A stretch of 64,000 nt of DNA. Source: Candidatus Daviesbacteria bacterium (lineage in GTDB: Bacteria > Patescibacteriota > Microgenomatia > Daviesbacterales > UBA10151). The stretch spans positions 602,763-666,762 of the forward strand of contig JACPDA010000004.1 of assembly GCA_016184225.1 (NCBI GenBank), in the 5' to 3' direction. Position 1 is the stretch's first letter. The number at the start of each line of letters is the position of its first letter. Positions 8,611 through 63,446 of this stretch are shown here, piece after piece. The notes under the pieces are model-generated. The model had not been told where the DNA came from, ran no database searches, and saw nothing but the letters and a program-made list of their open reading frames with translations. The position numbers and the translations under genes were made by a program.

Positions 8611-10446
8611 ATGAAGATTGATAAATTAAGCAAATTGGCAAAATTGTTAAGGTATTATATCCTGGTGTCTTCTTCCAGAGCCGGTTCAGGGCATCCGACT
8701 TCATCCTTGTCAGCTGTAGAGTTAATGGGGACACTGCTTTTTGGGGGCTTTTTTAGGTTTGACCTGAAAAACAAAAATAACCCCCTTAATGACCGGTTAA
8801 TCTTTTCCAAAGGCCATGCCTCTCCCCTTTATTATTCCCTTTTCACGGCGGCAGGTGCCATTACCAAAGCAGAACTCATGACTCTCCGGAAATTCGGCAG
8901 CAGATTAGAAGGCCACCCGACCATGGAATTTCCTTACACAGAGGTGCCAACAGGTTCCTTAGGCCAGGGTTTGTCAGCCGGTTTAGGCATGGCTTTGGTC
9001 AGCAAATACCTGGATAAAAGTAATTTCCGGACTTTTGTGCTCTTGGGGGATTCTGAAATGGCAGAAGGGTCTGTCTGGGAAGCTATACAGATAGCTGCTT
9101 TTTACAAGCTGGATAATTTAGTGGCCATCCTGGACGTAAACAGACTGGGACAAAGCCGGGAAACCATGCTCGGCCATGATGTTTCAAGCTACAAAAAAAA
9201 GCTGGAAGCCTTTGATTGGGAAGCAATTGTTATTGACGGCAATGACCTAAAACAGGTGACGGCGGCTTTTGAGAAAGCCTTAAAAGTGAAGGGTAAGCCG
9301 GTAATGATTATTGCCAAAACCTTTAAAGGCAGTGGTATATCATTTTTGGAAAATAAGGAAAACTGGCACGGCAAAGCCCTGGGTGAAAAGGATCTGAGTC
9401 TGGCATTGGGAGAATTGGGCCCGATAAATAAAAAGCTGCGCGGAAAAATTAATTTGCCCCGAAAGGCAGCTCTGAAAAAACAACCTGTCACCTATAACCT
9501 GAAACCTGTAACCTATTCCTTGGGCGAAACCATTGCCACCAGAAAAGCTTATGGTAATGCCCTAATTAGGCTGTTTCCCAAATACCCTGATATGGTAGTC
9601 CTGGACGGGGAAACCAGCAATTCTACTTACTCGGAATTTTTTGCCAAGGCGTATCCTGAGCATTTTTTTGAGATGTTTATTGCCGAACAAAACATGACCG
9701 GGGTGGCTCTTGGCCTGGCCAGGCTGGGTAAAATTCCCTTTATTTCCACTTTTGCCGCCTTTTTTACCAGAGCATATGATCAGATCAGAATGGCCCAATA
9801 TGCTGATACCAATATCAAGTTTTGCGGATCCCATGCCGGAGTATCTATCGGTGAGGACGGTTCCTCCCAAATGGGATTGGAGGATATCGGAATGTTCCGA
9901 TCGCTTTTGGGGAGCGTGGTGTTATACCCTGCTGATGCTGTATCCTGCGAAAAGCTGACTGAGGAAGCTATCAAGCATAAAGGAGTGGTTTATTTGAGAA
10001 CCACCAGGAAAGAAACACCGACTCTTTATAAAGCCAATGAAAAATTCCCCATAGGAGGCAGCAAGGTGGTTCGCAAAAGTAAGTCAGATCAGGTGACAGT
10101 GGTAGGGGCCGGCATTACGCTGCATGAAGCCTTAAAAGCCTATGACCTACTGAAAGCTAAAGGTATCTCCATCCGGGTCATTGATTTGTATTCTGTTGCC
10201 CCACTGGATTTAAAAACTTTAAAGCAGGCTGCTAAGGAAACAATGGCTGTTATTACTGTTGAAGATCATCATGCGGCAGGGGGAATAGGGGAAGCTGTGG
10301 CAGCTGCGCTGTCAGGAACAGGAAAGCCGGTACACATTATGGCAGTTACCAAAATGCCGCATAGCGGCAAGCCGGATGAGCTGCTGGAATATGAAGGTAT
10401 CTCTGCATCAGCTATTTACTCTAAAGTAAAAAAAGTGATAGTGTAA
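8611..10446 (+). CDS. tkt: transketolase
   Basis: Thiamine-diphosphate motifs (SSRAGSGHPTSSLS, GDSEMAEG) and pyrimidine-binding and C-terminal domains. ATG at 8611 follows the gdh stop directly; the longer ORF from 8509 overlaps gdh. Confidence 0.85.
   Translation: MKIDKLSKLAKLLRYYILVSSSRAGSGHPTSSLSAVELMGTLLFGGFFRFDLKNKNNPLNDRLIFSKGHASPLYYSLFTAAGAITKAELMTLRKFGSRLEGHPTMEFPYTEVPTGSLGQGLSAGLGMALVSKYLDKSNFRTFVLLGDSEMAEGSVWEAIQIAAFYKLDNLVAILDVNRLGQSRETMLGHDVSSYKKKLEAFDWEAIVIDGNDLKQVTAAFEKALKVKGKPVMIIAKTFKGSGISFLENKENWHGKALGEKDLSLALGELGPINKKLRGKINLPRKAALKKQPVTYNLKPVTYSLGETIATRKAYGNALIRLFPKYPDMVVLDGETSNSTYSEFFAKAYPEHFFEMFIAEQNMTGVALGLARLGKIPFISTFAAFFTRAYDQIRMAQYADTNIKFCGSHAGVSIGEDGSSQMGLEDIGMFRSLLGSVVLYPADAVSCEKLTEEAIKHKGVVYLRTTRKETPTLYKANEKFPIGGSKVVRKSKSDQVTVVGAGITLHEALKAYDLLKAKGISIRVIDLYSVAPLDLKTLKQAAKETMAVITVEDHHAAGGIGEAVAAALSGTGKPVHIMAVTKMPHSGKPDELLEYEGISASAIYSKVKKVIV
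9484..9518 (+). repeat. 5 tandem heptamers CCTGTAA-like, in frame in tkt
   Basis: cctgtca cctataa cctgaaa cctgtaa cctattc. Encodes the tandem 7-aa repeat QPVTYNL KPVTYSL. Confidence 0.7.
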
Positions 10447-18565: not shown

Positions 18566-18623
18566 ATAGACTCAAAGTCTACCACATACAGCTTTCGCTC
18601 ACAAATACATATTACTTCGTACT

Positions 18624-19298
18624 TTAGCCTTCCACACCGGGTGTGGAATCGTAAACGTCATCCAGTTGGTGATGCTTAAGTATTTCTAGCTCCATTCCAT
18701 AATCCACCTGAGCTATTACGAATTTTTCGTAGTCTTTTGAATTTTTAAATAACCCCAAAACTATATCTGGAACACATATTATTGGTTTTATTAAATATTC
18801 CTGATAAGAAGACCAAGGGTATTTGTCTATACTTTTAATTAGTTTAGAAACTACCGGATTTAGATGGATATACCGGGATACGTGTACTAATTGTTCATCA
18901 TTTTCAATCCTAACGGCCTTAAACCTATTTTGCCATAACGGACCAACCCGGTTATATTTAGTATTGAAATACTTAGAATAACTATTACAAAACTGCTGAA
19001 TAAAACGACTAGCCCCATTATCTTGTAATTGCCTGATCAAGAAGTGAAAATGGTTGGGCATAAGGCAATATCCGATAATTTCAACATATTTCTTGTCGGA
19101 AATTGGTTTTGAAAAATTTAATTTTGCTTTGCTAAAAAAAGAGAACTTGGGCTTCTTGCCGGAAAACTGATAATAGTAAAATGTTTTTCTGAAACGGTCA
19201 TAATCTCTTGGCTGAAGAAAAATATCTCGCTTTTCACTTCCTCTGTTAAAAAGGTGGTAAATCTCTCCTGTTATAATTGGTGATGTTCTTCCGGGCAT
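18624..19298 (-). CDS. tnpA: IS200/RAYT-like Y1 tyrosine transposase
   Basis: YCLMPNHFHFLI HuH motif and the downstream catalytic Tyr region (VSRYIHLNPV). Paralog of the 43244..43915 gene. The true start is probably M53 (MPGRTSPIITGEIYHLFNRG); the longer ORF to 19454 runs through the terminal hairpin. Confidence 0.7.
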   Translation of the reverse strand: MPGRTSPIITGEIYHLFNRGSEKRDIFLQPRDYDRFRKTFYYYQFSGKKPKFSFFSKAKLNFSKPISDKKYVEIIGYCLMPNHFHFLIRQLQDNGASRFIQQFCNSYSKYFNTKYNRVGPLWQNRFKAVRIENDEQLVHVSRYIHLNPVVSKLIKSIDKYPWSSYQEYLIKPIICVPDIVLGLFKNSKDYEKFVIAQVDYGMELEILKHHQLDDVYDSTPGVEG

Positions 19299-19512: not shown

Positions 19513-21378
19513 TTACTGGGAAAAGGGCAGCAGTTTCCAGAATTCAGCGGGGTGTAGGATAGCTGAAAGCAGATCAGGTTGCAATGTTCCAAAATCCAGA
19601 TCATTAACTCCTGTATAAACTTTTTGGTTTAAGGTTTTAGGTTTATAGAAAGGCTTTTCCAGGGAAAATTCAAAGGGATAATCAGGTAACAGATACCTGG
19701 CTTCTATCTCGCCGGAGATCCCTTGCTTATTTAAAGTAATGCTTTGTGCGCTTTCCCCGCTTACCCCCTTAACCTTCAGAGTGTAAGTACCTGTAAAGTC
19801 CCTCTTCCACCCCAGCGCGCCTATAATTTTTAAGATGACTGGTGATTTCACTTCAGTTGTAAAACGTAGCGGTTTGGATTCAAATTGTTTGCCCCCTATA
19901 AATAAATTTAAGGAGACTTCGTATGTTCCGCTTTCCGGGGCTTTTAATTTCAGGTTAAAAGTATGCTCTCCTCCCGGTTCTATTTTTTTGTCTTTTGGCA
20001 AGCTGACACTATCAATCCCCAGTTCACGGCCGCCTGCAAGGGGAACCAATTTTACCTGTTCTGCATCATTCCAAATGGATTGGCCCGTGTTTTTAAAAGT
20101 TAAGGAAATTATATAGGTTTCTCCCATTACTATAGAACTATATATTTCACCTTTTGTCAGACTTGCCTTTGTTTCCTGGAGCGGTTCTCCGGCCACCTTT
20201 GGCAAATCCATTATTGTTTGATACATGGAATAATACTCCGGATACTGAACACCTAAAATCCTGATATCGGGTAGTTTTTCCTTTTGTTTCTCTCCGGTTA
20301 TTTTCTTAAAAGAGAAATGATCAAAAGGAGCCTCCTGATAGCTTAGTAAGAAAGGGGTGACTGCAACAATTCTGTCAAGATTCCAGGCATTTTCAAAGGC
20401 TTTTTGCAAATTCACAGATACAGTATCAGCATCAGGTAATTTCGGATCGTAGTTAATTCCTTCCGCATGTTTCCAGCCGGTTTCGGTAATAAATATGGGT
20501 AGCTTTTTATTGACCCCAAGATTTTTGAGCTGCTCCATCTCCCAGACATAAGTCCTGACGGTTCCGCGGCCACTGGCATCAGGTGACCCGGCAAATTCCG
20601 GATTAGGATAAGAGTGTGATGTCCAACCGTCCAGCTTTTCGAAAATACCAGGCACGGCTTCCTCCATTAACCTCATAAAAGTGACCTGATCTTCGTACTT
20701 AGGCGCCTTCGGAGGAGCAGAGGCATCAAAACCGCCGTTGAGTACAAAAAAGTCTCTATTTTTGTTTTTTAGCGCTGTAATAGTCCGATCCAGCACTTTT
20801 GCATAATCTTTAGCGTCAACATTATTTCCCCATTCGCTGGCATGATTGGGTTCGTTATAAACAATTACATAACGGTTTTTAGTGGGCCAGATTAAGGCAT
20901 CTAAAAAATCAGCCCAAGCCTCCTCTTCCCCCTCGTAAGGCCTTTTCCAGTAGTTACCTTCCGGTTGGGTAGCTAACCTAACAATGGGGATTAAGTGCCG
21001 GCGGCGCAGGTCATTAAAAAACTCCTGCCATTTATTATGATCTCTGTCCTTACTCTCGACCAAAACTGTAATGTAGCCCCAGTCGCCGTGAGTATTAACG
21101 AGTGAAGCGGCAGGTGAAGATTCGTCGGGAGTAGCCTGGAGGATGTGAATACCGAAGCGGTTGTTCGGGACAGAAAGAGGATCGGTAATGGCATAGGTAG
21201 GGAACAGGGTACAGGGGACAGTGAACAGGAAAAACAAGAGCGCAATAATACTGTAACCTGTAACCTTCAACCTGTAACCTCTCTCTTGACCTTTGGGTTT
21301 ATTTCGGGTAATAATGGATATTATGTTAGAAATAGAGGAACCTATTAATGTTTGGGTCTTTTTTAAAAGTAACCTCAT
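19513..21378 (-). CDS. secreted glycoside hydrolase, GH5-like (beta/alpha)8 with C-terminal Ig-like region
   Basis: N-terminal TM/signal. VIVYNEPNH (NEP acid/base) and FITETGW (nucleophile Glu) motifs typical of GH5-type clan GH-A. Beta-rich C-terminus. Confidence 0.5.
   Translation of the reverse strand: MRLLLKKTQTLIGSSISNIISIITRNKPKGQERGYRLKVTGYSIIALLFFLFTVPCTLFPTYAITDPLSVPNNRFGIHILQATPDESSPAASLVNTHGDWGYITVLVESKDRDHNKWQEFFNDLRRRHLIPIVRLATQPEGNYWKRPYEGEEEAWADFLDALIWPTKNRYVIVYNEPNHASEWGNNVDAKDYAKVLDRTITALKNKNRDFFVLNGGFDASAPPKAPKYEDQVTFMRLMEEAVPGIFEKLDGWTSHSYPNPEFAGSPDASGRGTVRTYVWEMEQLKNLGVNKKLPIFITETGWKHAEGINYDPKLPDADTVSVNLQKAFENAWNLDRIVAVTPFLLSYQEAPFDHFSFKKITGEKQKEKLPDIRILGVQYPEYYSMYQTIMDLPKVAGEPLQETKASLTKGEIYSSIVMGETYIISLTFKNTGQSIWNDAEQVKLVPLAGGRELGIDSVSLPKDKKIEPGGEHTFNLKLKAPESGTYEVSLNLFIGGKQFESKPLRFTTEVKSPVILKIIGALGWKRDFTGTYTLKVKGVSGESAQSITLNKQGISGEIEARYLLPDYPFEFSLEKPFYKPKTLNQKVYTGVNDLDFGTLQPDLLSAILHPAEFWKLLPFSQ
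21251..21285. repeat. CCTGTAA heptamer array (4-5 units), in frame in the GH5-like gene N-terminus
   Basis: ctgtaac ctgtaac cttcaac ctgtaac. Same unit and DNA orientation as the tkt array but read on the opposite coding strand (GYRLKVTGYS). Confidence 0.7.
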
Positions 21379-21560
21379 ACAGCCTTACTCCTTTTTCTGG
21401 CACGGTAGAGAAATTAAAATAGATAAAATCAATTTAGTCCACACTTCCCGAAACGGTTCTTCGCTATTTTACCATTTTTCCGTAATGTCGGGAGGAAACT
21501 TTTACAGATTGAGGCTTGACACTAATAGAATGCGTTGGATACTGGAGGCAGTTGAAGAGG

Positions 21561-21635
21561 GATAGCTATCAGTCATCAGTCTTCAGCTCTCAGACTAAAA
21601 ATAAATCTGACGACTGAAAGCTGACAGCTGACGAC
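21561..21635 (+). repeat. bipartite heptad-repeat element A (TATCAGY x4, A-rich spacer, TGACGAC x4), ending 4 nt before the dinB ATG
   Basis: tatcagt catcagt cttcagc tctcagac + taaaaataaa + tctgacgac tgaaagc tgacagc tgacgac. Shares tcagtcttcagct with the copy inside gatD. Confidence 0.65.
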
Positions 21636-21639
21636 TACT

Positions 21640-23097
21640 ATGCGAAGCATACTACATATTGACTTCAATTCTTATTTTGCTTCTGTTGAACAACAGGCAA
21701 ATCCCCGGCTGCGGGGTAAACCAATTGGTGTTACAGGTGGGGATAGGATGCACAGGACAGTTTTGGGTGCAGCTTCAATAGAAGCCAAAAGGTTTGGTGT
21801 TAAAACCGGGATGCAGATTTGGGAAGCCAGGAAGCTTTGTCCACAAATTATCCTGGTGCCAGGAGATTCGGATAAGTATTTGGAGATAACTAAACGCTTT
21901 TTAAGTATTTTAAAAGACTACAGCCCTGCCCGCATTGCTTCGTCCACCAGTAACGCTTCGCGTAACGATGCGGACTGGCAAAGCGATGCAGGCGGGCCAT
22001 ATTTGGAGGTTTTTTCTATTGATGAATGTTTTTTAGAATTGGTGAATACTTCAGTCGGCAGCCCCGCTCTCTTGCTCGCTAACGCAAGCGTCCTGCGGTC
22101 CGATATGGATCGGACCTCGGATACGCTCGTCTTCGACTCGTCTAGAGCTTGCTGCGTTCGGAGGCAGCCTCCTTCTGCTACAGAGATTGCTTTTGATATT
22201 AAAAGTAGAATCCGGACTGAAATAGGCGAATACATTACCTGTTCTATTGGCATCTCTTACAATAAACTGATGGCCAAACTGGCTGGATCTTTACAAAAGC
22301 CTGATGGTCTGGTAATCATTCCCAACCAGGAAGAGGCGATTAAAGTTTTAGACAAAATAGAACTGGATGAAATTTGCGGCATCGGGCCAAGGATTAAGAA
22401 AAGGTTAAACAACTTAGGAGTATTTAATTTTTACCAGCTAAGGCAAGTTCCTTTAGAAAGCTTACTGGCTGCCTTTAAAAGCTATGGTCAGATCCTTTAT
22501 AACATGGCCAGGGGTATTGACCATTCACCTGTAGTGCCTTTTTACCAAAAAGAAGAAGTAAAAAGTATCGGTCACAGACATACTATAGATCATGATACTG
22601 CCGACCCAAAAGAGATAAAACAAATTCTACTCAAACTGTCTGAGATGGTAGCCAGAAGACTCAGGGCTAAAAGATTGGTTGGCAAAACCATCCATTGCTG
22701 GTATCGGGAAGCATTCTACTCCCGATTCCACCTGGAAGGTGAAAAAATGCAGCTACACCTTCCAGGTGAGTTTAATGGTAACAGCATGCAAATGACTATT
22801 CTCTATACCAATGATGGTTTGGATATCTTTAAAGCTGCCTGGAAAATTTTTCATCAGATCTGGAATACGGAAAAAATTAGGATGGTTGGTATCTCCATCT
22901 CCAACCTTAAACCCCAAACCCCGCAAAATTTAAGTTTTTTGCCTGAAGAGCAAAGAAAAGAGATAATCACCAAAGCTTTGGATAAAATTAATGACAGATA
23001 CGGTGAATTTACCCTGCAACGCGGCATCCTGCTTCAATCTGCTTCCATCAAAAGAAAGCCCAACCCCTTCCTAGCTGACAGAAGATTCAGACTTTAG
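21640..23097 (+). CDS. dinB: DNA polymerase IV (Y-family) with two GC-rich in-frame insertions
   Basis: ILHIDFNSYFASVEQ, FSIDECFLEL, SIGISYNKLMAKLA and C-terminal little-finger motifs. 485 aa, against about 350-400 typical. Confidence 0.8.
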   Translation: MRSILHIDFNSYFASVEQQANPRLRGKPIGVTGGDRMHRTVLGAASIEAKRFGVKTGMQIWEARKLCPQIILVPGDSDKYLEITKRFLSILKDYSPARIASSTSNASRNDADWQSDAGGPYLEVFSIDECFLELVNTSVGSPALLLANASVLRSDMDRTSDTLVFDSSRACCVRRQPPSATEIAFDIKSRIRTEIGEYITCSIGISYNKLMAKLAGSLQKPDGLVIIPNQEEAIKVLDKIELDEICGIGPRIKKRLNNLGVFNFYQLRQVPLESLLAAFKSYGQILYNMARGIDHSPVVPFYQKEEVKSIGHRHTIDHDTADPKEIKQILLKLSEMVARRLRAKRLVGKTIHCWYREAFYSRFHLEGEKMQLHLPGEFNGNSMQMTILYTNDGLDIFKAAWKIFHQIWNTEKIRMVGISISNLKPQTPQNLSFLPEEQRKEIITKALDKINDRYGEFTLQRGILLQSASIKRKPNPFLADRRFRL

Positions 23098-36940: not shown

Positions 36941-36992
36941 CCTACGGTGTGTGGGTATCCCACACCAGGGGTGGGTTAGGTTGACACCGTAC
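36941..36992. repeat. REP-like element in reverse orientation between convergent genes
   Basis: GTGTGGGTATCCCACAC hairpin plus GGTGGGTTAGGTTGACACC, the reverse complement of GGTGTCAACCTAA. Confidence 0.6.
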
Positions 36993-52211: not shown

Positions 52212-54053
52212 TTATTTTACCGTCACGCTTTTGGCAATGTTTCTGGGTTTGTCCACATTATGGCCTAACTCCACAGCCATGTAATAGGCCAGAAGCTGCA
52301 AGGGGATAATATTCATGATGGCAGAGGTTTCCCCTGTATCCGGCACCGGAATATAATGGTCAAAGCTGGCATGAGGCTTTGAAGAAATACCAATCACTGT
52401 TGCTCCCCTGGCTTTAACCTGGTTAACAGCATTAATTACATCATCCTTGGCCACATCTTCTGAGAGAACTACCACCACCGGAACCCCTTTTTCCATTAAG
52501 GTAATGGCATAATGTTTCAGGTCTCCGGCCGGAATACCGTGGGCATGGATATACGCCCCCTCAATTATTTTAACCATCCCTTCCTTAACAATATTAAGGT
52601 TTTGGTATTTACCCAGCAGAAAAATATGCTGCTTTTTAGCTAACTCTTTAGCCAGCTTCTTGAGCAAATCGTGATTTCTGCCTGAATTTAAATATTGATC
52701 TATTACCTCAGCTAGTTTTTTTAAATTGACTTTACCCTCTTCACTTTTTCCACTTATCACTTTGGCTAACAAATACCCCCAGGCAATTTGAGAAGTAAAA
52801 ACTTTGGTAGACATGACACAAATTTCCGGCCCGGCGTGTGAAGCAAAAGGATAATCAGAAATCCTACCCATGGTAGAGCCCGGCATATTCACATAAGAGG
52901 CAATTTTTAAGTCCTTTTTCCTGGCAATTTCCAAAACTTCCAACACATCTGCAGTTTCCCCGGACTGGGAAGGAGCAATCATCAGATCATCCTTAGTCAA
53001 AAGTTCATAATACTCATAAATATCTGCCCCAATCACACTTTCTGCCTTAATTTTACCAAATACCCGGAGGTAAAAAGCAATCTGGGATGCGGCAATGCCG
53101 GCTGTACCTGAGCCGATTGTATAAACATTTTCAGCTTTTTTAAGTTGCTTAACAAAATCTTCGTATAATTTGTAATCCTGATTTACCACCTGGCTGACCA
53201 CATAAGGGCTCTCAAAGATTTCTTTCAGCATAAAGTGGTCATAGCCTTCCTTATCCACCTTGCTGCTTTTAAGATTAATCCTTTCGGAACGGCAGAGTAA
53301 GGGTTTGTTGGATCTAATGTCCACCAGGTCAAGCTTGCCATTGTAACTTACCATTTGTCCGTTATCTAAAACAACCACCTTTTTAACGTATGGGGCAAAA
53401 GACAAAGTGTCGGAAGAAAGAAAAACTTCCCCGTCGTTTATTCCGATTACCAAAGGGGATCCGTTCCTGGCAGCCATAATTTGGCCGTCCTTAGCCAAAA
53501 CAATAATGGTATTTCTGCCTTCCAACTCCAAAAAAGCTGCCCTAATAGCCTCTTTCAACCTCTCACCACCTGGAAGGCGGGCTTTGTTCCGTAGGACGTT
53601 CTCTCCTTCCAGGTGAACTAATTTCTCTTCTATTAATCTGACAATGACTTCCGTATCTGTTTCCGACTCAAATTTATAGCCTTTTTTCAGCAAGTCTTTT
53701 TTAAGCTCCTGGTAGTTTTCTACAATACCGTTTTGAGCCAGGGCAAAACTTTTATCAGTAGAAAAGTGGGGATGGGCATTGATTTCGGAGATGCCGCCGT
53801 GAGTAGCCCAGCGGGTGTGACCGATACCAGTTGAAGAGTGATGAGTGTTAAGTGAGAAGTGGGAAGTCAAATCACCTATAGCACCAATACGCTTTTCTAA
53901 TTTTATCCCAGACTTTGCACTTTGCCCTTTGCACTCTTCACTTATTATGGCAATACCCCAGGAATCATAACCCCGGTATTCCAGCCTTTTTAAGCCTTCC
54001 AGGATCACTTCAGGGGCATTTTTCGGGCCGGAGTAACCAAAGATGCCGCACAT
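52212..54053 (-). CDS. glmS: glutamine--fructose-6-phosphate aminotransferase
   Basis: MCGIFGY N-terminal nucleophile, two SIS domains, C-terminal VTVK-like tail. 613 aa. Confidence 0.9.
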   Translation of the reverse strand: MCGIFGYSGPKNAPEVILEGLKRLEYRGYDSWGIAIISEECKGQSAKSGIKLEKRIGAIGDLTSHFSLNTHHSSTGIGHTRWATHGGISEINAHPHFSTDKSFALAQNGIVENYQELKKDLLKKGYKFESETDTEVIVRLIEEKLVHLEGENVLRNKARLPGGERLKEAIRAAFLELEGRNTIIVLAKDGQIMAARNGSPLVIGINDGEVFLSSDTLSFAPYVKKVVVLDNGQMVSYNGKLDLVDIRSNKPLLCRSERINLKSSKVDKEGYDHFMLKEIFESPYVVSQVVNQDYKLYEDFVKQLKKAENVYTIGSGTAGIAASQIAFYLRVFGKIKAESVIGADIYEYYELLTKDDLMIAPSQSGETADVLEVLEIARKKDLKIASYVNMPGSTMGRISDYPFASHAGPEICVMSTKVFTSQIAWGYLLAKVISGKSEEGKVNLKKLAEVIDQYLNSGRNHDLLKKLAKELAKKQHIFLLGKYQNLNIVKEGMVKIIEGAYIHAHGIPAGDLKHYAITLMEKGVPVVVVLSEDVAKDDVINAVNQVKARGATVIGISSKPHASFDHYIPVPDTGETSAIMNIIPLQLLAYYMAVELGHNVDKPRNIAKSVTVK

Positions 54054-58580: not shown

Positions 58581-58638
58581 TTCGGCTCAGCATTATACAA
58601 AATATTGTACAGATAGGCAAATCAGTCCTGTTGCAAAG

Positions 58639-58721
58639 TGCGGACGAGAGGAGTTGAACCTCCACACCATTTCTGGCACAGCCACCTCAAGGCTGCGTGT
58701 CTACCATTCCACCACGTCCGC
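58639..58721 (-). tRNA. tRNA-Leu (anticodon GAG)
   Basis: Type II: acceptor GCGGACG/CGTCCGC, anticodon stem CAGCC/GGCTG with loop TTGAGGT, long variable arm. Confidence 0.8.
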
Positions 58722-58723
58722 AT

Positions 58724-58809
58724 TGGTGCCGAAGAGAGGAGTTGAACCTCCACCCCATTGCTGGGACAGCGCTCTGAACGCTGCGTGTCTACCATTCCAC
58801 CACTTCGGC
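58724..58809 (-). tRNA. tRNA-Leu (anticodon CAG), CCA encoded
   Basis: Type II: acceptor GCCGAAG/CTTCGGC, anticodon stem CAGCG/CGCTG with loop TTCAGAG. 2 nt from the neighbouring tRNA-Leu. Confidence 0.8.
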
Positions 58810-61269: not shown

Positions 61270-62595
61270 ATGGGGTATAATTTCTCCATGCGTTTACTCT
61301 TTGCAATTCTGTTAGGCAAGTTGATTACCTATCTGACAAGGATTCTCAAAATCGGTGGTGGTTCTGCTGCGCCCGGTTTATATGCCTTAAAAATATACCC
61401 TTCCCTGGTTGAAAAGTTAAGCAAACGTATCCCCAAAAGTGTGGTCATCACCGGCACCAATGGTAAAACCACCACTGCCAAAATGCTGGCCCATTTTGCT
61501 ACAGCTTCCGGATTAAAAGTAATAAGAAACCACACCGGTTCAAACTTGGAAAGGGGAATAGCCTCTACATTGATCCACGGTGTGAGCCTATCCCACCCCT
61601 GGGGTGGGATGAATAGACACCTCGGGATTTGGGAGTTGGATGAAGCGGCTTTTAATGCGGTTGCGCCTAAGCTAAGCCCGGATGTGATTGTCTTTTTGAA
61701 TGTCTTCCGGGACCAGCTGGACCGCTACGGGGAGATCAATACTGTTCTCAAGAACTGGCAGGAAACACTAAAAAAGATCCCTTCCGGCACCAAAGTTTTA
61801 GTAAATGGTGACGATGCTAATATTTTGAGACTGGCCACTAGTTTTAGAGGTAAAGTCCAAAAATTTGGGGTTAAGGATTATAAGATTGTAGGGGAGGGCA
61901 TTGTCCACAAAAAAGAACAAGAAAACCTCGATTTCGAAGCTAAAGATGTCAAATTAGATGGCTTGAACAGTTCCAGTTTTATTCTCCAAACTACCAACTA
62001 CCAACTACCAACTACCTTACCATTACCAGGCATTTACCACATTTATGATTCTCTGGCAGCCTTTGCCTGCGCATTTAATCTGGGGTTACCAGTCAACCAA
62101 TTCACTAATTCTCTGATTCACTATACACCTGCTTTCGGCAGAGTAGAAAAATTAGGCTTTGGGTATATTTTCCTGATCAAAAACCCGGCCGGAGCTACCC
62201 AGGTTTTTGAAACTATAGCCCCCAACTTAAAACCCACTGATACTCTGCTTTTGGCTTTAAATGACAACATAGCAGATGGAACCGACGTATCCTGGATCTG
62301 GGATGCGAATTTTGAAGTACTTCAAAATTCGTCCCGAGCGAAGTCGAGGGACCTCAAATTATATGTTTCAGGCTCAAGAGCCTATGAACTGGCTGCCAGG
62401 CTCAAATATGCCGGTTTTGATCCTAAAAATATTACCGTGGACCCGAACCTTAAAAATGCTTTCAGACAGGCTAGAAGGAATCTAAAAGGGCAGTTATTCA
62501 TCCTGCCTACCTATACAGCTATGCTGGAATTGCAGTCTATTTTAGCCAAATCTGGTATTAAGAAACATTATTGGGAGGAGGAAGATAGAGTCTAG
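61270..62595 (+). CDS. murT: lipid II isoglutaminyl synthase subunit MurT (Mur-ligase-like)
   Basis: VVITGTNGKTTT Mur-ligase P-loop and C-terminal DUF1727-like domain. Immediately followed by gatD. Confidence 0.8.
   Translation: MGYNFSMRLLFAILLGKLITYLTRILKIGGGSAAPGLYALKIYPSLVEKLSKRIPKSVVITGTNGKTTTAKMLAHFATASGLKVIRNHTGSNLERGIASTLIHGVSLSHPWGGMNRHLGIWELDEAAFNAVAPKLSPDVIVFLNVFRDQLDRYGEINTVLKNWQETLKKIPSGTKVLVNGDDANILRLATSFRGKVQKFGVKDYKIVGEGIVHKKEQENLDFEAKDVKLDGLNSSSFILQTTNYQLPTTLPLPGIYHIYDSLAAFACAFNLGLPVNQFTNSLIHYTPAFGRVEKLGFGYIFLIKNPAGATQVFETIAPNLKPTDTLLLALNDNIADGTDVSWIWDANFEVLQNSSRAKSRDLKLYVSGSRAYELAARLKYAGFDPKNITVDPNLKNAFRQARRNLKGQLFILPTYTAMLELQSILAKSGIKKHYWEEEDRV
61991..62018 (+). repeat. CTACCAA heptamer array (3 exact units plus degenerate units), in frame in murT
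   Basis: ctaccaa ctaccaa ctaccaa ctacctt, encoding TTNYQLPTTLP. Confidence 0.65.
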
Positions 62596-62660
62596 TCGCT
62601 AGAATCTAGAGTCTGGAAATTCAAAATCTAGACTCTTGACTCTCGACTCTAGTCACTAAC
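62587..62660 (+). repeat. bipartite heptad-repeat element B (AGAGTCT x4, A-rich spacer, AGACTCT x4), ending at the gatD ATG
   Basis: agagtct agtcgct agaatct agagtct + ggaaattcaaaat + ctagact cttgact ctcgact ctagtca ctaac ATG. The two arms are reverse complements. Confidence 0.65.
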
Positions 62661-63446
62661 ATGAAGCTGACCATTGGCTATCTATATGGGGATTTGATGA
62701 ATATCTACGGAGACACCGGCAATATTATTGCCCTGAAGAAACGGGCCGAGTGGCGGGGAATAGAAGTTGAAATTAAAAATATCTCTATCGGAGATAAGTT
62801 GAAAAAGGGTGAGGTGGATATTTTCTTTTTTGGAGGAGGACAGGACCAAGCTCAGGAGTTGGTATCAGCAGACTTACTTAAATCCGGTAAAGGAAAACTC
62901 ATCAAACAAGAAGTTGAAAGGGGAATGCCGCTGCTGGCTATTTGTGGAGGTTATCAGCTATTGGGCGATTACTACAGACCACATAAGGGACCTAAACTGC
63001 CCGGAATTAGCATGTTTCCGGCCTATACTTTAGCAAGTTTCGACAGGATGATCGGCAATATTGTTATTCAGTCTTCAGCTATCAGCTATCAGCTATCAGA
63101 CAGAAAACAAAAAAAGTCTGACGACCGACGACTGACGACTGACGACTTTCTTGTCGGTTTTGAAAACCATTCCGGAAAAACATACCTTAAAAAGGGTGCA
63201 AATCCTTTAGGTTTGGTTTCCAAGGGCTGGGGGAATAATGGCAAGGACAAAACAGAAGGCTGCATCTATAAAAATGCCATTGGCTGCTATATGCACGGCT
63301 CACTTTTACCCAAAAACCCTAAGCTGGCAGACTGGCTTCTTAAAAAAGCTTTAGAAACAAAATATGGTAAGGAAATTTTACTGGAGCCTTTGGATGATAC
63401 CTTAGAACTCCAAGCTCACGGAGTAGCTGTCAAAAAATTTGGTTAG
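62661..63446 (+). CDS. gatD: glutamine amidotransferase GatD (CobB/CobQ-like, partner of MurT) with about 26-aa insertion
   Basis: YGDLMNIYGDTGN start, catalytic Cys in AICGGYQLLG and His in MHGSLL. The insertion SSAISYQLSDRKQKKSDDRRLTTDDF is encoded by heptad element C. Confidence 0.8.
   Translation: MKLTIGYLYGDLMNIYGDTGNIIALKKRAEWRGIEVEIKNISIGDKLKKGEVDIFFFGGGQDQAQELVSADLLKSGKGKLIKQEVERGMPLLAICGGYQLLGDYYRPHKGPKLPGISMFPAYTLASFDRMIGNIVIQSSAISYQLSDRKQKKSDDRRLTTDDFLVGFENHSGKTYLKKGANPLGLVSKGWGNNGKDKTEGCIYKNAIGCYMHGSLLPKNPKLADWLLKKALETKYGKEILLEPLDDTLELQAHGVAVKKFG
63069..63146 (+). repeat. bipartite heptad-repeat element C (CAGCTAT x4, A-rich spacer, TGACGAC x4), in frame inside gatD
   Basis: cagtcttcagctatcagctatcagctatcagac + agaaaacaaaaaaa + gtctgacgaccgacgactgacgactgacgac. 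Shares tcagtcttcagct with element A. Confidence 0.65.

Follow-up and report, generated by a model that had tools for sequence, protein, structure and literature searches.

The stretch analysed here, referred to as the window, comprises 64,000 nucleotides (nt) of contig JACPDA010000004.1 (positions 602,763 to 666,762, assembly GCA_016184225.1) from a Candidatus Daviesbacteria bacterium, a member of the candidate phyla radiation (CPR). Two of its regions carry the elements of interest: a small open reading frame (ORF) followed by dinB, which encodes a Y-family DNA polymerase, and the murT and gatD pair, the latter encoding the glutaminase subunit of lipid II isoglutaminyl synthase (Table 1). Copy A lies before dinB, copy B at the junction of murT and gatD, and copy C in frame within gatD itself. 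A first-pass annotation, made from the letters alone, had credited these three loci with a shared architecture, and this was borne out: each is roughly 73-80 nt long and consists of four heptamers, an A-rich loop and four roughly complementary heptamers. Copy A does not lie in a divergent promoter region; it sits between the stop codon of the small ORF (TAG, 21563-21565, overlapping the first bases of the element) and the ATG of dinB.

The architecture of the three copies is far beyond chance. Nine to ten tandem arrays of period 7 were found in the window, whereas each of the other periods between 4 and 12 yielded 0-2 and shuffled sequence about 0-0.2, and the pattern TCAGNNNTCAGNNNTCAG (TCAGN3TCAGN3TCAG) gave nine matches against 0.17 expected, all of them within copies A and C. 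The arms have four units with 76-100% unit identity, and only the AACTACC x4 array in murT is perfect. The 13-mer said to be common to A and C, TCAGTCTTCAGCT, and the TGACGAC unit are both real, and the B units (AGAGTCT / AGACTCT) are indeed unlike those of A and C. Judged by their units, A and C make up one sequence family, F1, whose left arm is (TCAGCTA)n, the reverse of TAGCTGA, and whose right arm is (CTGACGA)n; B represents a second family, F2. The family of A and C recurs at other sites in other genomes. The description of the B arms as perfect reverse complements applies at the level of the unit consensus only, the actual arms forming about 23 Watson-Crick pairs with interior loops. All three reported copies are real, but they are not the whole complement, as the window also holds two further bipartite elements (copies D and E) and single arrays. 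A search of the whole window against Rfam 15 at the gathering threshold returned 14 tRNAs only and no family matching the elements. An intrinsic-terminator reading of A, B and C was rejected, there being no T-run after the element on either strand.

Table 1 Repeat elements, their predicted folds and the associated genes in the window
Feature	Position	Strand	Description
Copy A	21564..21636	+	F1-family array hairpin between upstream small-ORF stop and dinB ATG; fold: sense -28.5, antisense -36.9 kcal/mol, antisense z -3.9
Copy A left arm	21566-21593	+	4 x NNNTCAG: CTATCAG TCATCAG TCTTCAG CTCTCAG
Copy A loop	21594-21606	+	13 nt, A-rich
Copy A right arm	21607-21634	+	4 x CTGANNN: CTGACGA CTGAAAG CTGACAG CTGACGA; then CT, ACT, ATG at 21640
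Copy B	62587..62657	+	F2-family array hairpin at murT/gatD junction; fold: sense -26.4, antisense -29.9 kcal/mol, antisense z -3.4
Copy B left arm	62587-62614	+	AGAGTCT-type: AGAGTCT AGTCGCT AGAATCT AGAGTCT
Copy B loop	62615-62627	+	13 nt
Copy B right arm	62628-62655	+	AGACTCT-type: CTAGACT CTTGACT CTCGACT CTAGTCA; then CT, AAC, ATG at 62661
Copy C	63068..63147	+	F1-family hairpin, in frame within gatD; fold: sense -20.9, antisense -37.6 kcal/mol, antisense z -5.1
Copy C left arm	63068-63102	+	TCAGTCT, TCAGCTA x3, TCAGACA
Copy C loop	63103-63117	+	15 nt
Copy C right arm	63118-63145	+	CTGACGA CCGACGA CTGACGA CTGACGA
Small ORF upstream of dinB	21293..21565	+	Conserved in L236 and L237; no Pfam family
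SD-like GAAGAGGGA	21554-21562	+	In last codons of small ORF
dinB, Y-family DNA polymerase	21640..23097	+	Pfam IMS, IMS_C, IMS_HHH_1; 485 aa vs ~400 aa in orthologues
Shine-Dalgarno GGGAGGAGG	62573..62581	+	Inside last murT codons, 5 nt 5' of copy B
gatD, lipid II isoglutaminyl synthase glutaminase subunit	62661..63446	+	Pfam GATase_3; 261 aa vs 240-aa orthologue baseline
Copy D	21199..21280	-	AGGGAAC-type arm, 21-nt A-rich spacer, CTGTAAC-type arm; in frame near N-terminus of GH5-like ORF 19513-21378
Copy E	53826..53942	-	Complementary arrays NNNAAGT x5 + ACTTTGC x4; in frame in GlmS
Single array, murT site 1	61986..62016	+	AACTACC x4 exact; encodes QTTNYQLPTT
Single array, transketolase (tkt) gene	9482..9516	+	AACCTGT-type, ~5 units; encodes PVTYNLKPVTYSL
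Small palindrome, murT site 0	61576-61623		In frame; GGTGTG..TATCCCACCCC-TGG-GGTGGGAT..ACACC, dG ~-28 kcal/mol on both strands
Short element, murT site 2	62329-62355		TCCCGAGCGAAGTCGAGGGA; contains GCGAAG mini-hairpin motif; sibling at ~34064

The placement of copy B was compared with orthologous sites in a set of 69 murT-gatD loci totalling about 1 Mb, and that of copy A with the dinB junctions of L236 and L237; L-numbers are the labels of individual loci or contigs. As had been noticed, A and B stop short of an ATG with no Shine-Dalgarno (SD) sequence in between, the 3' end of each element lying 3 nt before the start codon; the SD-like sequences stand 5' of the elements, in the last codons of the upstream frames, and the murT stop (TAG, 62593-62595) falls in the 5' arm of copy B. 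An empty murT/gatD junction reads GGGAGGAAGnATGA, in which the last murT codons hold the SD, 4-6 nt before the ATG of gatD, and the stop and start codons overlap; this is the ancestral arrangement. Roughly one third to one half of the orthologous junctions are empty and keep the tight stop/start overlap. The others are filled in different ways, with F2 in the window, L005 and L068, F1 in L004, L018 and L022, and single arrays or other palindromes in at least ten more loci. At dinB, the junction of L236 is empty, the small ORF ending in GGAGGAAGGATAA followed by AAA and ATG, and L237 has a 52-nt TTTTCAG/AACTGAN hairpin instead of copy A. All filled junctions share one layout. The SD comes first, 2-6 nt 5' of the stem; the stop codon of the upstream gene is found at the base of the 5' arm, where F1 has the TAG of TAGCTATCAG; and 3 nt separate the 3' arm from the ATG.

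Two side observations concern such junctions. The junction upstream of rplT (MARVKRG) is recurrently occupied, by an AACGATT array in L035 (16158-16191) and by a one-armed F1-like array (AGCTATCTGTCTGAAAGCTGAAGACTGATGACTGACTACT-ACT-ATG) in L065 (6560-6610). In L236 (1433-1530) the first ~30 nt of dinB (ATGAGAACTATTCTGCATGTTGACTTCAAT) are present twice, in diverged form, around an insert of ~36 nt (TAGATCGCCGCAGGCGAGCGCAAG...), and the annotated start is the second copy. The extra length of dinB in the window resides in three variable in-frame insert sites (~21925-21999, 22036-22189 and 22714-22791), the first of which is a non-heptamer palindrome of ~75 nt, unique to this genome among the 16 sequences of the dinB alignment.

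Copy C had been taken as a 26-aa insertion in GatD. Codons 63069-63149 encode 27 aa, QSSAISYQLSDRKQKKSDDRRLTTDDF, which stand in for six ancestral residues (ESMFGK) with a net gain of 21 aa; peptides expected from its translation are SSAISYQLSDRK and SDDRRLTTDDF. In its right arm the second unit is CCGACGA instead of CTGACGA, by which an in-frame TGA is removed. Alignment of GatD orthologues, suggested as a check by the first-pass annotation, established that the insert is not ancestral: of 57 loci, 45 retain the segment IVIESMFGKLV, the Roizmanbacteria outgroup among them, and in solved GatD structures the insert site is six residues long. In the remaining 12 loci the ESMFGK codons have been replaced, and unrelated arrays occur in at least ten lineages scattered over the tree. 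Bipartite hairpins occupy the site in the window and L003 (TCAGCTN/CTGACGA), L016 (a variant), L004 (ATCG/CGAT core), L006 (GAATTC core) and L041 (ATGA/TCAT), and single arrays occupy it in L029, L035 and L037. In a tree built on murT and gatD, the sister loci of the window (L008 and L023) lack an insert, as does L028, the sister of L003. Since the ancestral GatD codons are gone, the inserted states cannot revert, and they must therefore represent independent events or imported alleles; the identity of the window to L003 in the flanks of copy C is ordinary (~75-86%), with no clear signal of local recombination. An AlphaFold2 model of GatD (32-sequence alignment) had a mean pLDDT of 60.7, with residues 96-210 below 50, and was not used.

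Closely related genomes document gain, loss and replacement at these sites. L018 and L020 are 90.5% identical, and F1 at murT/gatD is present in the former and absent in the latter. L238 and L239 are 91.6% identical and carry an identical F1 in gatD, with no change in unit number. At murT site 2, the same two genomes have nearly equal-length cassettes that are wholly different, built of AACAATT-type and AACTACG units respectively around different central GC-rich palindromes, and they are further distinguished by two clean 21-nt in-frame indels of CTGCCGGCAGG-type palindromes, in murT and in gatD. The CTGCCGGCAGG-type motif is absent from the window; it is present in L026, L035, L036 and L041, and in the metagenome contigs L093, L134 and L163, which carry F1 hairpins. 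It was also observed that L018 (8518-8551) and L020 (8590-8630) have an ACTAGTG array directly upstream of murT whose length in the two is 9 nt apart (one unit plus 2), and that this array adjoins a TATAAT box, so that the difference could change promoter or 5' untranslated region spacing.

Replacement without change of length is most evident in murT. The site-1 segment is exactly 60 nt in 23 of the 26 array-bearing loci, including the window, which equals its length in the array-free outgroups, and the 'array-free' Daviesbacteria keep degenerate heptamers there (lag-7 identity 0.34). When genomes are compared, the units (AACTACC, AACTATT, AACGATT, AACCATT and AACAGTT) are linked in a network by steps of one to two substitutions. 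Site 1 would be an old array in which pairing out of register, followed by correction, keeps the units alike at constant length. Stepwise slippage by 7 nt would cross lethal frameshifts. Local sequence also leaves its mark on the units: all murT site-2 units start with the conserved GAAAA of the FEK codons, and at one gatD start a (TGAAAAT)n array has been amplified from ATGAAAATTGTC, the start codon becoming TTG. In glmS, the arrays of copy E take the place of two GlmS loops flanking the conserved strand IKLEKRIGAIGDL, and arrays with other units occupy the orthologous sites in L022, L040 and L044.

These arrays belong to a population that extends across the lineage. Altogether 141 period-7 arrays were found in the comparison loci, at a density of 1-7 per 20 kb in Daviesbacteria, together with arrays in a single Roizmanbacteria locus and a single locus labelled Saccharibacteria; none was present in Chloroflexia, Collinsella and the other non-CPR outgroups examined. 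With ORFs of at least 90 aa counted, 123 of the 141 (87%) lie inside ORFs, which is about the coding density. Each of the 69 GatD and 66 MurT orthologous matches is a single in-frame high-scoring segment pair and none is frame-shifted, and the arrays should therefore be translated. A tandem heptamer passes through all three reading frames, and its units are altered exactly where a stop would enter the frame; CCGACGA in copy C is one example, and another is AAGTTTA, which recurs at each third position of AAGTTAA arrays. A cyclic stop is contained in 57 of the 123 consensus units on the sense strand, compared with 87 on the antisense strand. The unit vocabulary is large, with 93 canonical units in 141 arrays, and a genome-specific heptamer set was considered and rejected, as units are not shared within a genome (within- versus between-locus similarity, permutation p = 0.32).

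The F1 family is not confined to this lineage. A metagenome scan was made with the F1 left arm as query, and its matches were filtered by a period-7 score, about three quarters of them being chance. Some 30 true TCAG-heptamer hairpins remained, on contigs of 37-65% GC, and F1-like hairpins adjoin start codons in L083, L100, L134, L178 and L187. Viral contigs scanned for the same arm gave only chance 15-mer matches without arrays. Near-perfect TCAGCTT/AAGCTGA hairpins followed by a T-run, terminator-like in appearance, were observed in L083 and in L088 (7942-8010; GC 0.65, with an enolase closest to Acidobacteriota), both contigs being of high GC and unrelated to CPR.

The folding of the three copies as RNA, likewise suggested beforehand, showed that all of the elements are predicted to form long interrupted hairpins and that these are always stronger on the strand antisense to the gene. 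The elements of glmS and of the GH5-like ORF belong to minus-strand genes, and for them the plus strand folds better; in the related loci all eight in-ORF pairs and also the intergenic copies are stronger antisense. The dinB palindrome at 21925-21999 behaves likewise (antisense dG -47.3 kcal/mol, z -4.8). Over 17 hairpins, the sense strand has 64 A.C oppositions compared with 27 G.U. The sense strand is A-rich and G-poor (A 40%, G 12.6%), and the simplest cause of the asymmetry is this composition together with T-to-C changes that remove sense stops, through which sense pairs become A.C and antisense pairs G.U. As the units evolve in concert, each family yields only one or two independent positions. 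RNAalifold across four glmS elements was uninformative because the repeat registers leave the alignment ambiguous, and arm covariation there can be described qualitatively only.

Small palindromes unrelated to the heptamer arrays share the same permissive sites and also occur between genes. The palindrome at murT site 0 has an intergenic sibling between convergent genes (36943-36991) and relatives at 18623-18655 and ~42080, and the same site in other Daviesbacteria holds unrelated hairpins or heptamer arrays. Where the window has the short element of murT site 2, seven loci (L008, L015, L019, L023, L035, L037 and L039) have longer GTCATTGCGAGGAGCGAAGCGAC...CTCGCAATGAC palindromes translated as SLRGAKRRGNL / APRNDV, and elements of this type were found in both MurT and DinB orthologues. 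Elsewhere in the window, the 14 tRNA genes in 64 kb include two tandem tRNA-Leu genes at 58638-58809 (detected by Tandem Repeats Finder as an 88-nt repeat), and the cumulative GC skew peaks near 24-32 kb.

On balance we consider it probable, with moderate confidence, that copies A, B and C are tolerated DNA-level repeats, selfish or neutral and not adaptive switches, and part of a heptamer-array population spread through the Daviesbacteria. Arrays would arise by repeat amplification, with inverted copying or insertion producing hairpins, and out-of-register strand pairing with correction may keep their units alike in a form of concerted evolution. Selection would then act as a filter, such that in a genome that is ~90% coding the arrays persist only in harmless places. 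One such place seen here is the 0-4 nt spacer between the stop and ATG of translationally coupled genes (small ORF/dinB and murT/gatD), where by analogy the mRNA hairpin would loop the insert out and bring the SD and stop near the AUG again. Permissive protein loops, in which an array is carried in frame and free of stops (GatD, GlmS, MurT and Tkt), are the second. The presence of small palindromes in the same permissive sites is to be expected if tolerance, and not function, decides the survival of an element.

Several observations weigh against this interpretation. The murT arrays replace 28-39 nt with length unchanged, for which simple slippage in an essential gene cannot account. TCAG hairpins of the F1 type, their units nearly unchanged, turn up in unrelated contigs of high GC, including an Acidobacteriota-like one; a purely local origin is hard to fit to these carriers, which hint at horizontal spread or a sequence-specific mechanism. 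Antisense pairing of the arms was better in every case tested, and a neutral model accounts for that bias only via strand-biased composition and stop avoidance. Finally, the murT/gatD junction has been colonised independently (at least three F1, three F2 and at least eight single arrays), the dinB junction is filled in two of three genomes and the rplT junction twice, and the 3' end of the element is always ~3 nt from the ATG; such repeated colonisation at a fixed distance could indicate a selected role in translation.

The turnover of arrays at constant length and the antisense bias of their pairing might instead be the work, in Daviesbacteria and perhaps in many other bacteria, of an active process that is templated by sequence and overwrites short segments within essential genes through one conserved enzyme or repair pathway across phyla, a proposal that we regard as speculative and rather unlikely. 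Under such a process, 28-40 nt of coding sequence would become tandem heptamers of unchanged length with units kept identical, inverted copying would give hairpins optimised on the template (antisense) strand, and whole cassettes would be swapped between strains ~92% identical. The TCAG/CTGA-core hairpins of CPR, Acidobacteriota-like bacteria, Beggiatoaceae and cyanobacteria would then be its footprint, and not the product of slippage plus drift. If the turnover and the antisense bias do reflect an active mechanism, this would be a new mutational process on coding DNA.

The main rival to tolerance holds that the arrays and hairpins before start codons are selected cis-regulators of translation, which bind a protein or ribosome component or tune coupling or mRNA stability, with the in-frame copy C as a by-product. 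The independent and repeated filling of the murT/gatD, dinB and rplT junctions agrees with this, as do the forward-type arm that ends ~3 nt before an ATG with no SD between (as in the TAACTGA repeats discussed below) and the metagenomic F1-like hairpins adjoining start codons. It is nevertheless an unlikely explanation for the elements as a whole, given that one third to one half of the orthologous junctions do without any element, that different sequence families stand at the same junction in different genomes and that the great majority of arrays (87%) lie inside ORFs. No candidate binding protein was identified, and the sense-strand hairpin, the one an mRNA would form, is the weaker of the two.

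The suggestion of a MITE-like element (miniature inverted-repeat transposable element) with a structured RNA form has survived in part. A non-autonomous transposon, MITE or REP/REPIN-like, whose F1 and F2 copies were moved by a transposase encoded elsewhere (e.g. a Y1 HUH enzyme acting on single-stranded hairpins), would account for a dispersed family with a ~75-nt architecture and near-identical arms at different loci and genomes, for presence and absence between genomes as close as L018 and L020, and for the clean in-frame presence and absence of 21-nt palindromes in strains ~92% identical; the arms are, moreover, imperfect inverted repeats over their whole length, resembling the terminal inverted repeats of MITEs. 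There is, however, no consistent target-site duplication, the flanks being GAT/ACT (A), GAT/AAC (B), ATT/ATT (L004, L018 and L022) and TAT/AAT (L005), and neither the loop nor the number of units is constant among copies. Many arrays were seeded from local sequence and replaced it without change of length, and the 93 units in 141 arrays form no genome-specific set. No transposase was seen near any copy in a search that was not exhaustive, the window ORFs being only partly annotated. The consistently weaker sense hairpin does not favour a dedicated structured sense RNA, and transposition is judged improbable.

It is less probable still that the hairpin has its function on the other strand, as single-stranded template DNA or antisense RNA that would, for example, block replication or transcription or direct the processing or termination of antisense transcripts. 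The better antisense fold in all elements tested, its reversal with gene strand for glmS and the GH5-like ORF, the preponderance of A.C over G.U among the sense mismatches and the same bias in the non-heptamer dinB palindrome are what such a function would produce. Yet the asymmetry follows from the A-rich, G-poor sense strand and the stop-removing T-to-C changes, and the concerted units reduce the evidence to one or two independent positions per family. No U-run follows the antisense hairpins, and there is no evidence for an antisense promoter.

The least credible proposal, and one largely refuted, is the contingency-locus logic of the first-pass annotation, under which slippage by one 7-nt unit would switch gatD on or off or alter the start context of dinB and gatD: it draws on 7 not being a multiple of 3 and on the array that differs by 9 nt next to the TATAAT box upstream of murT, but it fails since no frame-shifted alleles occur among the 69 GatD and 66 MurT orthologues, and the arms have only four imperfect units with no long near-perfect tract, units carry edits at the positions where periodicity would bring a stop into frame, two strains ~92% identical have the same F1 in gatD, the hosts are housekeeping genes (dinB, murT, gatD, glmS and tkt) and not surface, restriction-modification or host-interaction genes, and close relatives differ in length by multiples of 3 (9 and 21 nt), the 9-nt difference being the only change seen in array length.

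The finding bears on how CPR genomes are viewed. CPR/Patescibacteria genomes are thought to be streamlined, yet this genome of ~0.8 Mb tolerates dozens of arrays and palindromes in MurT, GatD, GlmS, DinB and transketolase, and in the few nt that couple the translation of adjacent genes. Lineage-specific 'low-complexity inserts' in CPR proteins may accordingly be DNA-level repeats and not protein innovations.

Several known systems resemble the elements in part. In phage T4 genes 38 and 25, the SD and AUG are tens of nt apart and are brought together by an mRNA hairpin; the geometry is that seen at copies A and B, and the analogy is one of mechanism only, with no sequence relationship. Heterocystous cyanobacteria have short tandemly repeated repetitive (STRR) heptamers such as CCCCAGT, TTGGTCA and CAACAGT, which differ from the present arrays in unit and host and have only a CAGT/TCAG core in common with them. 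The small dispersed repeats (SDR) of Nostoc punctiforme are reportedly mobile, hairpin-forming sequences of 21-27 nt that are nested in tandem heptamers and can lie inside genes. The GC-rich palindrome nested in the AACTACG array of L239 murT and the 21-nt palindromes gained or lost in frame recall this account, but phylum and sequences are different, and the loops of A, B and C are A-rich and non-conserved with no SDR core. Rickettsia palindromic elements (RPE), found in a reduced genome, are inserted in frame in unrelated housekeeping genes and translated, protein function being compatible with their presence. They are ~100-150 bp long with a conserved family sequence and peptide and no heptamer periodicity, and have no sequence relationship to A, B and C, whose host differs and whose peptides vary with the unit; only the behaviour as in-frame palindromes is shared.

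Long simple sequence repeats (LSSR) of heptanucleotides are, by secondary accounts, in excess in bacteria with a modal number of about four copies (Mrazek et al., 2007, via PMC4679880 and PMC4692102), and in Xanthomonas the unit GGGAATC is there said to form 70-75 convergent array pairs able to form stem-loops (PMC4679880, PMC4692102). The same partial accounts indicate that heptamer units differ between related species at the same loci, and the title of one report places STRR arrays inside the RNase P RNA gene. About 90% of heptamer LSSRs are described in these accounts as intergenic, whereas 87% of the Daviesbacteria arrays are intragenic and in frame, and the Xanthomonas and Nostoc units are given as G-rich G-quadruplex formers, whereas the present units are A-rich and G-poor on the sense strand. 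The replacement of coding segments without change of length is not described in what these secondary accounts relate of heptamer LSSRs.

The closest published system in both sequence and placement is the TAACTGA heptamer repeat, known from marine Beggiatoaceae, cyanobacteria and some Bacteroidetes (MacGregor, 2015; PMC4679880). Its sets of 2-6 units, mostly 'forward', lie within a few nt of start codons without SD, forward units having stops in all frames and so ending upstream ORFs, and the reverse translating as LSVISYQ; for the single-base variant TAGCTGA, the reverse translation is SAISYQL (Table 3 of PMC4679880). A binding site for an RNA-binding protein or ribosomal component has been proposed as its role, and heptamers related to it seldom occur as repeats (PMC4679880). 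F1 is alike in its tandem CTGA-core heptamers, in occasional intragenic copies in housekeeping proteins and in its cross-phylum distribution. The CTGANNN x 4 right arm of copy A ends 5 nt before the ATG, with the same for F1 in L004, L018, L022 and L065, and the GatD peptide SSAISYQLSD from (TCAGCTA)n matches the SAISYQL listed for TAGCTGA. The units themselves are not identical, TCAGCTA being the reverse of TAGCTGA (one mismatch) and CTGACGA being CTGATAA with two transitions; exact TCAGTTA arrays were found in L014 murT only. Further differences are the inverted pairs that make hairpins here, compared with one reported indirect repeat in BOGUAY, the SD just 5' of the hairpin, the CPR host, and the fact that most arrays of the lineage use unrelated units inside ORFs. 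Over all arrays there was no enrichment for TAACTGA-like units (6 observed versus 5.6 expected at up to one mismatch), F1 alone being TAACTGA-like.

From this resemblance, F1 is best described as an inverted pair of TAACTGA-like arrays with the forward-type arm abutting the ATG. The elements, which the first-pass annotation did not recognise as ERIC, REP, BIME or Correia, match no Rfam family, but F1 is recognisable, its units differing from the published TAACTGA repeat by just one or two transitions. Repeats of heptamers, repeats next to start codons and palindromes carried in frame are already known separately. New are their combination as array hairpins within a CPR lineage, the predominance of these in essential genes, the precise stop/hairpin/ATG placement, the length-preserving turnover and the antisense-biased pairing. 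The comparison ties the TAACTGA puzzle and the bacterial excess of heptanucleotide repeats to a system with thousands of sequenced relatives, in which gain, loss, unit turnover and arm covariation are traceable site by site.

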